Shown here: piece after piece, positions 3,419-9,334 of the stretch | How positions within the stretch are numbered: the first letter of the stretch is position 1 | How the letters are laid out: each line of letters begins with the position of its first letter | Source of the DNA: Candidatus Bathyarchaeia archaeon | Lineage (GTDB): Archaea > Thermoproteota > Bathyarchaeia > Bathyarchaeales > Bathycorpusculaceae | NCBI GenBank assembly: GCA_049515895.1 | Contig: JBEKTQ010000033.1 | Span: forward strand, 1 to 18,135 | Length of the DNA stretch: 18,135 bases | Reading direction: 5' to 3' | Position numbers and translations under genes: made by a program | Notes under the pieces: generated by a model | Told to the model about the DNA's origin: nothing | The model's input: only the letters and a program-made list of their open reading frames with translations | The model's database searches: none

Positions 3419-4597
3419 ATATCACTTCAAATTCTGCACTGCAACGACACGCATCTAGACAAGAACTTTAGCATCTCGAATATTTCTAAAGCCATTCAGA
3501 GAAAAGAGGATTTGAACAACAACTTCTCAAAGGTAGTCGACTACGCAGTGAAGAACAAGCCAGATGTTTTCCTGATGGCAGGTGATGTTTTTGACAAGAT
3601 TCTCCCAACCAATGCTTCCAGAGTCTTCTTAACCCAAGAAATAAAACGCCTCAAGGACGCTAACATCGCTGTATTTATTATCGGCGGAAACCACGACGTT
3701 CCAAGATTCGGCGTTTCTCCTACACTTGCAATAGATGTTCTTGATTCAGCCGGAATCGCAACAGTCTTCTCACGCTCCGACATAATCCAAAAGAAAAAAC
3801 TTACTATCAAAGGTAAAACTATCTGCGTTTCAGGCAGATCCTACTACACTCTGTTTGAAGGGGCAAATCCTCTCAAGGACACTGAGGTTCCACTCGACGG
3901 TGACTATAATATTTTGATGATTCACGGTTCACTCCAAGGGCTAAACGTAGCCTCATCAGTTCCAGAAATGGCCTATCAAAACCCATTTCAGGCCGACGAC
4001 ATCAAGAATGGCCTCAACTATCTAGCACTTGGACATTTTCACAATCACTTCGAAAGAGAACACATGGGTTGTAAAATCGTCAATCCAGGCTCCACTGAAA
4101 AGCTCACTTGGGCAGAAATAAACGATGAAAAAGGCTTCGTTTGGGCAGAACTAAACGGATCTGAAACAACCACAGAATTCATCAAACTTGACACCCGCCT
4201 AATGGAAACAAACGAGCTCACACTCTCCAAAAACGAGACATACACCAAAGGCATAAAACAATATGTTCTAGATTTCCTATCAAAAACAACCAACCCCGAA
4301 AAAATACTCAAACTAAGCCTAAACGGCATAATCTCGCAAGAACAATACAACCAACTCAAAATCAACGAACTCCTAACGGCATGCAACGACAAATTCTTCA
4401 ACCTCCAAATAGACAGAAAAGACCTAGAACTAGAAGGCTACGGCAAAGTCTTCATAGAACGCATAGACAACCCAGTTGAAGCCTACTCCAAAAGACTCGA
4501 TGCCTTAATCAATCAAACCAAACCCGATGACCCAAACAGGCAGCTACTTGAACAAGCAAAAAGTCTCGGCATCAAATACCTGGAGGCAGCCAAATGA
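3419..4597 (+). CDS. mre11: Mre11/SbcD-family metallophosphoesterase DNA nuclease (YhaO-like motif I)
   Basis: Extending the 3512 ORF upstream in frame gives ISLQILHCNDTHLD (motif I), bounded by TGA at 3410-3412. Other motifs present: AGDVFD, GGNHD, MIHG, LGHFH, NPGS. The start is inferred at ATA 3419 (392 aa). Confidence 0.92.
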   Translation: MSLQILHCNDTHLDKNFSISNISKAIQRKEDLNNNFSKVVDYAVKNKPDVFLMAGDVFDKILPTNASRVFLTQEIKRLKDANIAVFIIGGNHDVPRFGVSPTLAIDVLDSAGIATVFSRSDIIQKKKLTIKGKTICVSGRSYYTLFEGANPLKDTEVPLDGDYNILMIHGSLQGLNVASSVPEMAYQNPFQADDIKNGLNYLALGHFHNHFEREHMGCKIVNPGSTEKLTWAEINDEKGFVWAELNGSETTTEFIKLDTRLMETNELTLSKNETYTKGIKQYVLDFLSKTTNPEKILKLSLNGIISQEQYNQLKINELLTACNDKFFNLQIDRKDLELEGYGKVFIERIDNPVEAYSKRLDALINQTKPDDPNRQLLEQAKSLGIKYLEAAK

Positions 4598-7865: not shown

Positions 7866-9334
7866 TGACCAAAATGTACCTCCTCACAAAAGAAGAAGAC
7901 GATCTGGCGATAGTATTCGCCCCAGAAGAAAGCCTTAGAATAGGGGACAACCTCGACATAGACGGAGTAATAGCTCAAGTCATAGACATAAGATTCGCTG
8001 ACCTACCCGGTGTCCTCGAACACATCCTAAGAAAATCTCTCATCGCAAAAACTGAGACCCAAGAACATATACAACCTGAAGTCAAAAGCGTCATCGACTC
8101 ACTATCAGACCAAAAACTTGCCTTAGCAAAAATTAGAGGTCGACTAGTCGAAGTTGATGACGGCAACGGCAACAAAAAGAAAGTGTTCAAAACTGGACTA
8201 AGCGAATTCAACATCAGCCGAGCTAAAGCCAAAATCAAAATCCTAAACCAAGAAGAACTCTTCAATGCGTTGGGCCTATGCTTCCCAACTCCATGCGACT
8301 TCGCAAAAACACTCTCAACCGACCCAAAACCATTCGACATACTAGCCGAAAGACTAGGCATCAACCTAATTACCGGTATGAAAGGCTCAGGAAAATCCTA
8401 CGCGGCGAAAAGGCTCCTGCTCAAACTAATTGAAAGAAAAGTCTTAACAATAGTTTTCGACATAAACGGCGAATACCTAAACCTGTGGAAAGCAAATGAT
8501 GGCTCTCAAAACAGGTACGGAGACCACTTCAACGTCTTCACGCCCCGCCTCCAAAGAGCAAGGATTCATGAACTTCCGTTTCTTATCCCGCTCTCCGAAA
8601 TATCATACGACGACTTCGCTGCATTCATAAGTATAACTCAGGGAACCCCAACATACCAAGCTTTGATGCAGTTCTGGCGAGATCGAGGTCGAACCCAATT
8701 TGACCTGCACGATTTTGAACAATGGGTAAACAATCAGCAAAACTTGAACGACGCCGTTGTAGCAGCCTTGTTGGGAAGAATTCAAGCGGCCGTGGCTCTT
8801 GGATTATTCGGTCCAAGCAACTTGGCAAACACTATTGTAGAAATGCACAGAACAGGCGGAGTAATGATCATAAATCTCGCACAGGTAGGTCAATGGGAGA
8901 GAGGCATAATCGTCGATTTCGTACTCCGTAAACTCGCGCAACTCAGCCTAGCAGGAGAAATAAGAGCAGTCTCACTGTTCCTTGAAGAAGCGCAACTTTA
9001 TGTTGACCAACAAAAAATGATAAACATACTTACAAGAATGAGGCACCTGGGAATATTTCCGACATTCATAACTAACGACCCCCGCACCTTACCAGACGAA
9101 GTATACACACTCTTGGATAATCTTGTAGCCTTCATGTTCAAAAATGAAGATGAACTCAAACAACTAGCGAAATCCGGATTTATAGATACAAAATCAATTT
9201 ATGCACTTAAACATCTGGAAAACAAACAATGTATTGTTGTTGGAAATGTGACATCAAATTTCCCAGTCTTCGTCGAAGTGAACCCACAAGCAGGTGTTGT
9301 AATGGGAGGAGAAACTAGAAAACTAGTCAGCTAA
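7865..9334 (+). CDS. herA: HerA-family (FtsK/HerA) ATPase/DNA translocase
   Basis: N-terminal beta-rich HAS-barrel-like region, Walker A ITGMKGSGKS, FDINGEY, Walker B LFLEEAQ and Arg-finger region TRMRHLG. The GTG start overlaps the nurA TAG by 1 nt (alternative ATG at 7874). Confidence 0.9.
   Translation: MTKMYLLTKEEDDLAIVFAPEESLRIGDNLDIDGVIAQVIDIRFADLPGVLEHILRKSLIAKTETQEHIQPEVKSVIDSLSDQKLALAKIRGRLVEVDDGNGNKKKVFKTGLSEFNISRAKAKIKILNQEELFNALGLCFPTPCDFAKTLSTDPKPFDILAERLGINLITGMKGSGKSYAAKRLLLKLIERKVLTIVFDINGEYLNLWKANDGSQNRYGDHFNVFTPRLQRARIHELPFLIPLSEISYDDFAAFISITQGTPTYQALMQFWRDRGRTQFDLHDFEQWVNNQQNLNDAVVAALLGRIQAAVALGLFGPSNLANTIVEMHRTGGVMIINLAQVGQWERGIIVDFVLRKLAQLSLAGEIRAVSLFLEEAQLYVDQQKMINILTRMRHLGIFPTFITNDPRTLPDEVYTLLDNLVAFMFKNEDELKQLAKSGFIDTKSIYALKHLENKQCIVVGNVTSNFPVFVEVNPQAGVVMGGETRKLVS

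Follow-up and report, generated by a model that had tools for sequence, protein, structure and literature searches.

What does a second, hookless set of DNA-end processing genes do in a genome that already holds the usual one? The question is raised by a peat archaeon that carries, besides its normal break-repair genes, an accessory set of four genes, mre11-rad50-nurA-herA, at positions 3419-9334 of the stretch of DNA analyzed here. This whole stretch (the window) is the complete 18,135-bp contig C33 of a 3.18-Mb assembly in 53 contigs. The locus is probably an accessory operon that was acquired horizontally and encodes a machine for resecting DNA ends while tethered to the membrane; among known systems, SbcEF of Bacillus subtilis is closest to it. 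The cassette comprises the following features.

3419..4597, + strand: mre11-like nuclease gene (392 amino acids (aa) from ATA 3419; frame open from 3413)
4594..6855, + strand: rad50/sbcC-like ABC ATPase gene (753 aa), zinc hook absent
5656..5790, + strand: predicted transmembrane (TM) helical hairpin at the coiled-coil apex (Rad50 residues 355-399; from hydropathy and an AlphaFold2 (AF2) model)
6852..7865, + strand: nurA nuclease gene (337 aa; PF09376)
7865..9334, + strand: herA ATPase/translocase gene (489 aa from GTG 7865; the in-frame ATG 7874 is an alternative start)

The four open reading frames (ORFs) lie in series and overlap by ATGA at 4594-4597 (mre11/rad50), ATGA at 6852-6855 (rad50/nurA) and TAGTG at 7863-7867 (nurA/herA). 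These junctions and the family matches bear out the tight coupling of four genes described in the initial annotation, and alignments with relatives bear out its statement that the core catalytic motifs of the four proteins are intact. All four proteins score under the NCBIfam equivalog cut-offs or have no NCBIfam match.

Rad50 matched AAA_23 of Pfam (34.4 bits, gathering score 27), NCBIfam Rad50 (1.3e-30, far under the cut-off) and, among solved structures, M. jannaschii Rad50 (6.7e-22). The split ABC head and long antiparallel coiled coil of Rad50/SbcC proteins were present, and Walker A (G32/G37/K38), Q145, the signature S656-G657-G658, D690-E691 and H723 were invariant or nearly so in 44 sequences. 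CxxC, the mark of the zinc hook, was absent from the protein; the zinc-hook family PF04423 matched only a paralogue on contig C21 of this genome. A hydrophobic stretch of ~45 residues was found at 355-399 (Kyte-Doolittle 19-residue maximum 2.5), in which two stretches of ~20 residues with a mean hydropathy of 2.3-3.0 are joined by a turn of 2-3 residues, with basic residues on either side. The AF2 model (44 sequences, predicted local distance difference test (pLDDT) 84.7) placed a helix at 348-375, a turn at 376-378 and a helix at 379-438. The modelled arms consist of a 164-residue helix (170-333) and further helices, including 525-624, that return to the C-terminal half of the head, and the head strands were modelled as well. 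Across relatives the alignments show that the hydrophobicity of the apex is kept while its sequence drifts. Residues 355-399 are thus predicted to form, where the arms end, a helical hairpin that crosses the membrane and has both ends in the cytoplasm. The hookless Rad50 with a TM hairpin proposed earlier stands as a prediction, and the membrane anchor as a conserved predicted feature.

The known role of the zinc hook is dimerization. The hydrophobic apex could accordingly be a buried dimerization module which replaces the hook in a soluble complex outside the membrane, and the central domain of B. subtilis SbcE is, in the available text of PMC2811018, reported as hydrophobic and insoluble only and not as membrane-bound. 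The pair of ~20-residue segments with a short turn, basic flanks and free drift is instead the pattern expected of lipid-facing helices and not of an amphipathic bundle, and a soluble apex is considered improbable.

The cassette Mre11 matched Metallophos PF00149 of Pfam (6e-10; 54.1 bits if read from 3428). In NCBIfam it matched Mre11_Sulfo (2.4e-30, 106 bits against a cut-off of 500) and sbcd TIGR00619 (2.6e-21, 76.6 bits against 77.65), in both cases below the equivalog level. Its best solved relatives were the M. jannaschii and T. maritima Mre11 proteins (7.5e-14). The consensus motifs I-V of Mre11 are DxH, GD, GNH(D/E), H and GHxH; all of them were present in the alignment with homologues, in keeping with an Mre11/SbcD fold and motif set. 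The beginning of the gene is unusual. The ORF 3419..4597 was called with the table-11 start list, which includes ATA; the codon at 3419 is ATA and no canonical start. No ATG, GTG or TTG occurs in the mre11 frame between the TGA stop at 3410-3412 and TTG 3512, and this first canonical start would remove motif I. ATA 3419 aligns with Met1 of the homologues from loci L030 and L040. Read by eye, GGTGA lies at 3408-3412, 6 nt before the ATA, and ATATAAAA at 3375-3382. The letters at ATA 3419 were the same in contigs of two sequencing runs, both possibly the source. Either ATA would initiate translation, aided by GGTGA, or the nuclease subunit would be impaired.

A decaying cassette, in which the start of mre11 has been lost and the set is no longer a working unit, would be in line with ATA at the Met1 position of the homologues, with the loss of motif I from the first canonical start and with an unmatched 67-codon frame in the 582-bp gap that precedes mre11. 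Against decay stand the four open frames with all motifs intact, the place of ATA among the table-11 starts and the GGTGA 6 nt upstream, and it is regarded as quite unlikely. The 67-codon frame itself (3074-3274, - strand) looked by eye like the C terminus of an ABC ATPase, but neither a Pfam family nor a paralogue elsewhere in the genome matched it, and this reading is unsupported.

NurA matched PF09376, the NurA domain of RNase H-like fold, with 32.3 bits (gathering 21), and its D73, E156, D175-G176 and D268 were invariant in nine sequences. With the AF2 model of NurA (pLDDT 84.8), Foldseek gave S. solfataricus NurA 2ygk as the best fold (E 1e-9, TM-score 0.49/0.52), followed by the TdpAB chain 8wfd_G (second, E 1.3e-8) and then T. 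kodakarensis HerA-NurA. HerA matched PF01935, the DUF87/HerA translocase family, with 53.9 bits (gathering 23.2); Walker A (G174-x-G176-K177-S178) and E374-E375 were invariant in eight sequences. HerA also matched the PADLOC HerA models (1e-8 or weaker) and mad8. Searching the solved structures by sequence gave nothing useful for either NurA or HerA, and for HerA no solved relative was found in this way.

Is the cassette a new system, as the initial annotation proposed? A word-indexed search with the TM Rad50 gave 223 matches, of which the best 120 were 43-75% identical and nearly all 748-754 aa long (seven had 1010 aa); an exhaustive search gave 8,295 matches at E<=1e-3 and 142 at E<=1e-30. 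The apex was scored in the full-length proteins (>=580 aa, n=124) among the best 150 cluster representatives. A hairpin was seen in 119/124, in 117 as the hydrophobic segment alone and in two together with CxxC; three had CxxC only and two had neither. All 13 matches from the phylum had the hairpin. It was present in 29 of 45 genome loci, the remaining 16 being five fragments without the centre and 11 long Chloroflexota forms. Close relatives are labelled Bathyarchaeia, Nitrososphaerota, Thermoproteota, Heimdallarchaeota and Thermoplasmata, with a few bins labelled bacteria, and distant TM forms come from Caldisericota, Dictyoglomota, Chloroflexota and one Bacillota genome. The cassette is therefore not a singular system but one member of a large family of Mre11-paired TM-hairpin Rad50 proteins. 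A full-text literature search found no description of a transmembrane Rad50 in archaea; the 2020 ABC ATPase classification of Krishnan and colleagues might cover it.

Gene content around the family was compared across 100 loci. Mre11 was found in 89 of them, a TM Rad50 in 80, HerA in 32 and NurA in 30, and the next family in 12. After removal of 15 near-identical loci, a BLAST-based recount of 65 loci gave 32 with mre11-rad50-nurA(-herA), three with (nurA-)herA-mre11-rad50 and 25 with mre11-rad50 only; five were too short. The core of the family is Mre11 plus TM-Rad50; NurA-HerA is an optional addition, for which two different arrangements exist. This linkage in two gene orders supports a joint function of NurA-HerA with Mre11-Rad50. 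Arm length varies within the family: longer TM Rad50 proteins (P0006, P0008-P0012 and P0014, 1010 aa; P0102, P0124 and P0140, ~862 aa) have extra coiled coil on both sides of the hairpin. In the Mre11-linked Chloroflexota forms of ~1030-1270 aa (L054, L056, L059, L063-L070) the hairpin was not found; 10/11 had no CxxC and L059 had one, and their apex may be of a third kind.

The initial annotation had suggested a search of the genome for a second, hook-containing rad50. It was found on contig C21, where a Metallophos gene directly precedes the gene for a 695-aa Rad50 that matches the zinc-hook family, a canonical hook Mre11-Rad50 pair. This hook Rad50 was present in 39/40 congeners at 61-92% identity, and the single miss was a 65%-complete genome. 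On contig C9, a HerA gene with an upstream 359-aa NurA (by BLAST) forms a second NurA-HerA pair, 31% and 30% identical to the HerA and NurA of the cassette; the C9 HerA was found in 24/40 congeners. The cassette HerA and NurA are closest to this C9 pair of the same genome. The cassette is thus a paralogous set, as had been claimed, and not the sole, vertically conserved core set; the hook pair is the core one. The TM Rad50 was present in none of 24 congeners and none of 25 genomes of the family, in 1/16 other genomes of the order (27% identity) and in 12/400 sampled other genomes of the phylum, a distribution as patchy as had been predicted.

The cassette Rad50 shares 64% identity with the L028 protein, 58% with the L029 protein and 47-49% with proteins from Bathyarchaeia-labelled contigs, and only 26-27% with the same-order TM Rad50 proteins. 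The relatives at 47-64% sit on contigs labelled Bathyarchaeia, unclassified archaeon and Tenericutes. In a quick Rad50 tree of 33 rows, used solely for the split between the cassette clade and the same-order clade (the hook outgroup and L072 are on long branches that meet), the cassette formed a supported clade with the 47-64% relatives, and the same-order and most same-phylum sequences fell in another clade. Since the same-order TM Rad50 proteins are more distant than relatives elsewhere and lie in another clade, the cassette is best read as horizontally acquired and accessory.

The known system with the greatest likeness is SbcEF of B. subtilis. Its ATPase SbcE (YhaN) is presumably listed as a membrane protein in UniProt. 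As described in PMC2811018, SbcE is SbcC-like and without CxxC, has a conserved insoluble central domain whose first half is hydrophobic, and is encoded next to the SbcD-like nuclease SbcF (YhaO); loss of SbcE gives sensitivity to breaks and mildly lower transformation, and in competent cells both proteins are seen to collect at the pole. The cassette has the same architecture, with a hookless SbcC/Rad50-like ATPase with a hydrophobic centre encoded directly after an Mre11-like nuclease, and it too is a second set beside a hook-type one (SbcCD in B. subtilis). The novelty that had been seen in this architecture is weakened by the experimentally studied bacterial analogue. In contrast to the cassette, no NurA-HerA is reported with SbcEF, and membrane insertion of SbcE is not described, in the available part of PMC2811018. 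The relation in sequence is weak, the cassette Rad50 reaching 17.8 bits against 22 for the YhaN-type Pfam family AAA_27 (PF13514) over residues 28-56 (P-loop) only; some homologues of the cassette Rad50 carry a precomputed PF13514 label.

With the archaeal herA-mre11-rad50-nurA end-resection operon (Sulfolobales, Pyrococcus type) the cassette shares the clustering of all four gene families, their translational coupling and their intact motifs. The best solved relatives of its Mre11 and Rad50 are archaeal, and S. solfataricus NurA is the best fold match of its NurA. It differs in the order mre11-rad50-nurA-herA, which is unlike the orders quoted in a review, in the hydrophobic hairpin in place of CxxC and in being accessory and patchy instead of core. 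NurA-HerA defence systems (bacterial NurA-HerA, TdpAB, SIR2-HerA) have in common with it the chassis of a hexameric HerA ATPase and a nuclease, and bacterial NurA-HerA complexes chiefly degrade foreign DNA according to the review; these systems are not reported with Mre11-Rad50, let alone with a membrane-anchored one. The SMC-like defence ATPases (Lamassu LmuB, MADS mad3/mad8, Wadjet JetC, DndD/PbeC) are coiled-coil ABC ATPases as well, and cassette Rad50 matched PADLOC LmuB over its full length (1.2e-17). The operon, however, has no LmuA/LmuC, Jet, Dnd or other Mad partners, and its partner is Mre11 as in Rad50/SbcC. No complete PADLOC anti-phage system was found; the matches were to generic ATPases (LmuB, mad8, HerA) without partner genes.

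What, then, is the setting of this copy? The window matches congeners at 13.1-14.3 kb and 17.76-18.1 kb with 75-92% identity, collinear on G019:C32 and G004:C27, and no congener counterparts were found left of ~13.1 kb. A 10,956-base contig of run X1 covers 2588-13543 without difference, and contigs of two runs bridge the junction; since the X1 contig spans this region unchanged, the island junction is not an assembly join. A search for tRNA genes, Rfam families and long repeats as marks of the island ends found none. A metagenome contig (L118) that is identical to the window extends it leftward and joins window base 1 to the start of contig C11. Window 1-1011 (5'-open) and C11 3-1130 (3'-open) are halves of one gene for a 672-aa SMC-like ATPase (L118 4400-6418). 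From L118 into the window the order is SLFN helicase, methylase, NurA-like, HerA, SMC-like ATPase, 308-aa and 302-aa genes.

Left of the window, on L118: Schlafen-group-3 (SLFN-g3) helicase gene (501 aa; PF09848 1.6e-87; PADLOC AbiO/Nhi 1.8e-14)
Left of the window, on L118: Type II D12 methylase gene (1e-109)
Left of the window, on L118: NurA-like gene (weak match, 1.3e-3)
Left of the window, on L118: HerA gene (524 aa; PADLOC HerA 7e-19)
1-1011, + strand: C-terminal half of the SMC-like ABC ATPase gene (whole protein: SMC_N 42.7 bits against 40; mad3 1.5e-12)
1017-1943, + strand: gene for a 308-aa protein without assigned family
1922-2830, + strand: gene for a 302-aa protein with a weak PARP-type zinc-finger match
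9376..11740, + strand: downstream island genes for proteins of 108, 95, 250 (HEPN-like lead) and 290 aa (PD-(D/E)xK-like lead)

The SMC-like ATPase claimed for the flank is confirmed by the SMC_N match of the 672-aa protein. Two other flank assignments are tentative. The 250-aa product of 9973-10725, called a HEPN protein, and the 290-aa product of 10868-11740, called a PD-(D/E)xK nuclease, could not be given these family names: the former has weak leads and an RxxxxH motif, the latter weak Mrr/NERD-like structural leads and a D...ExK motif. The four downstream proteins of 108, 95, 250 and 290 aa matched no curated family save PDC-S19 (1.2e-6, 250-aa protein). The variable, defence-like island itself was borne out, and its leftward extension is even richer in defence-type genes. 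The NurA-like/HerA/SMC-like module left of the window could be a second NurA-HerA-based system. Downstream, the three small genes at 9376-10725 (108, 95 and 250 aa) overlap one another and begin 41 nt past herA, and they may be co-transcribed with it; none is conserved beside the cassette in related loci.

Because the copy is surplus and the island around it is variable and of a defence type, the likeliest role of the machine here would be to process or destroy linear DNA, foreign or incoming, that appears at the membrane, a role which we propose tentatively. A dedicated anti-virus or anti-plasmid system, whose membrane-held complex recognizes incoming linear DNA and whose NurA-HerA destroys it, would fit the company of the SLFN-g3 helicase, the Type II methylase, the NurA-like/HerA/SMC-like module and the HEPN-like and PD-(D/E)xK-like leads. 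The patchy phyletic distribution would fit it too, as would the NurA-HerA-type precedents (TdpAB among the fold matches, and foreign-DNA degradation as stated in the review). In L028, the closest genome locus, the cassette has an AbiEii/AbiEi pair on one side and a PLD-family nuclease on the other. On the other side stand the PADLOC matches, made through generic ATPase parts only and without partner genes, the ordinary or unassignable neighbours at L040 and L029, and the lack of any conserved companion gene, for instance a methylase, that could tell self from non-self. Taken with the family-wide evidence below, dedicated defence appears doubtful.

Several findings weigh against reading this locus as an acquired, membrane-held machine for incoming DNA. 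In the cassette itself, the Mre11 subunit may be poorly made or absent for want of a canonical start, and insertion into the membrane is a prediction from hydropathy and a modelled helix-turn-helix. The flanks of the family were scanned, with the 25 commonest families listed, in the 150 longest of 170 flank genes at 24 four-gene loci and in 141 of 195 at two-gene loci. At four-gene loci DNA methylase was the commonest family (6/150) and most others were metabolic; at two-gene loci methylase was found in 4/141, and peptidases and oxidoreductases led. No difference in defence genes between the two sets of flanks was seen in this crude bulk scan, in which related strains are non-independent. The enrichment of defence genes near the family that had been anticipated did not appear as a visible excess, the flanks being mostly housekeeping, and since four-gene and two-gene flanks are alike the defence context is local and not a family trait. 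Beside the family, 100 loci showed no conserved gene for a membrane channel, for a pilus or for any other function in uptake or sensing, and no relatives were found on viral contigs.

The copy number of Mre11 adds to this. The count covers five genomes of the phylum, 93-99% complete, of which four (G140, G161, G208 and G278) have a single Mre11, in each case the TM-linked one, and one closed genome has two. Canonical Rad50 was sought through Pfam AAA_23 and an apex scan, a search with the hook Rad50 of this genome being too insensitive. In five further genomes reached through loci (completeness not given), a hook Rad50 was found beside Mre11 in one, and the TM type was the only Mre11-adjacent Rad50 found in the other four. 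A reverse-gyrase-like gene (L046 11077-14400, L047 10807-14130) with DEAD helicase, Toprim and topoisomerase IA domains stands directly after nurA-herA-mre11-rad50TM in two loci; this points to thermophiles whose house set may be the TM type. A closed genome of the phylum holds, at G065:C1:911556-915254 (L197), a second Mre11-adjacent Rad50-like gene with a 760-aa frame; neither CxxC nor a hairpin was seen in the 738 residues of its product examined.

The sole TM-linked Mre11 in four of five genomes and the reverse-gyrase-like neighbour would fit ordinary break repair by an alternative, membrane-anchored type of machine, of which this genome would hold a redundant copy at an incidental position in the island. 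The housekeeping neighbours of the family agree with this, as does the break sensitivity of B. subtilis without SbcE (PMC2811018). Repair is harder to square with the core hook pair and NurA-HerA pair already present in this genome, with the absence of the cassette from congeners and its place among defence-type genes, and with the lack of an evident need for a membrane anchor in chromosome repair. As the whole explanation of the locus, ordinary repair with an incidental position is judged somewhat unlikely; as the role of this copy, membrane-proximal break repair is a possible alternative, if a rather uncertain one. The family overall looks like a repair-type machine, and the copy in this genome looks accessory.

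Processing of imported or exchanged DNA, in a transformation- or conjugation-like process with single strands made at the membrane, would accord with the gathering of SbcE and SbcF at the pole of competent cells and with the mildly lowered transformation on loss of SbcE (PMC2811018). It would also accord with the published proposal that HerA-NurA feeds archaeal Ced/Ted DNA transfer, rad50/herA being near Ted genes in some Thermoproteales. No conserved pilus, channel or VirB4/CedB-like gene was found near any of 100 loci, and none was seen in the window. This explanation is held to be very unlikely, and DNA uptake as the role of this copy is given as little weight. The initial proposal of a membrane-held machine for defence or uptake therefore stands in part: the paralogue, the island and the patchy distribution speak for it, the housekeeping flanks of the family and the sole Mre11 in 4/5 genomes speak against it, and such a role is plausible here.

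If the preferred reading of a membrane-tethered DNA-end resection machine is correct, the hairpin would insert in the cytoplasmic membrane with both ends inside and hold two Rad50 arms there. The Mre11-bound ATPase heads would then reach some tens of nanometres into the cell, and their ATP-driven engagement would capture a free DNA end near the membrane. Mre11 would nick or clip the captured end, and the co-expressed NurA-HerA motor would thread the duplex and degrade or resect it. As a proposal this mechanism has a good basis in the component proteins.

The zinc hook of Rad50 is treated as a hallmark of Mre11-Rad50 in all domains of life. A whole family that exchanges the hook for a predicted membrane anchor, and that is apparently the only Mre11-Rad50 in some archaea, suggests a wider reading. 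The hook would not be universal, and a large, old archaeal and bacterial branch of Mre11-Rad50/SbcCD would be anchored in the membrane by an arm-tip hairpin. As the only Mre11-Rad50 of several archaeal lineages it would have ends recognized at the membrane, and one sub-branch would have captured NurA-HerA and would move as a four-gene module, here into a defence island. We consider this proposal nearly as probable as not. A real anchor would mean that these organisms recognize DNA ends at the membrane, with a bearing on DNA-end tethering in hookless archaea, on SbcEF function in B. subtilis and on the recruitment of repair modules to handle incoming DNA. Being compact, self-contained and mobile, the cassette is practical for reconstitution and challenge tests.

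The TM-hairpin Rad50 family is large, widespread and little described, and threshold-based annotation of Rad50 can miss its members, as the NCBIfam Rad50 scores far under the cut-off indicate. A recent comparative paper on Nitrososphaera-related archaea reports that NurA-HerA-Mre11 are adjacent and that, with strict annotation, Rad50 was 'not detected'. Rad50/SbcC-like candidates adjoining NurA-HerA-Mre11 may be listed in the supplementary tables of PMC13707971. A hookless, divergent Rad50 as in L046 and L049 could explain such Rad50-less clusters of ammonia-oxidizing archaea.

Other features were seen in the right part of the window. A HicA-type toxin gene lies at 16634-16927 (- strand; PF07927, 44.7 bits against 27); for an antitoxin partner, the neighbouring frames 16011-16316 and 15578-15832 gave no family match. 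The gene at 12894-15077 (- strand) encodes 727 aa rich in Ser, Thr and Pro, with a CARDB match and a hydrophobic segment at either terminus. Congeners share the central part of this protein at 75-77% identity, a paralogue lies on contig C1, and the genus backbone begins here. The contigs of three runs (X1, X2 and X3) are joined at 15921-15962 in a way that 'goes back 42', and there are loose ends at 15921 and 15952; this suggests a repeat or a strain variant in the gene-poor 15.1-16.6 kb.

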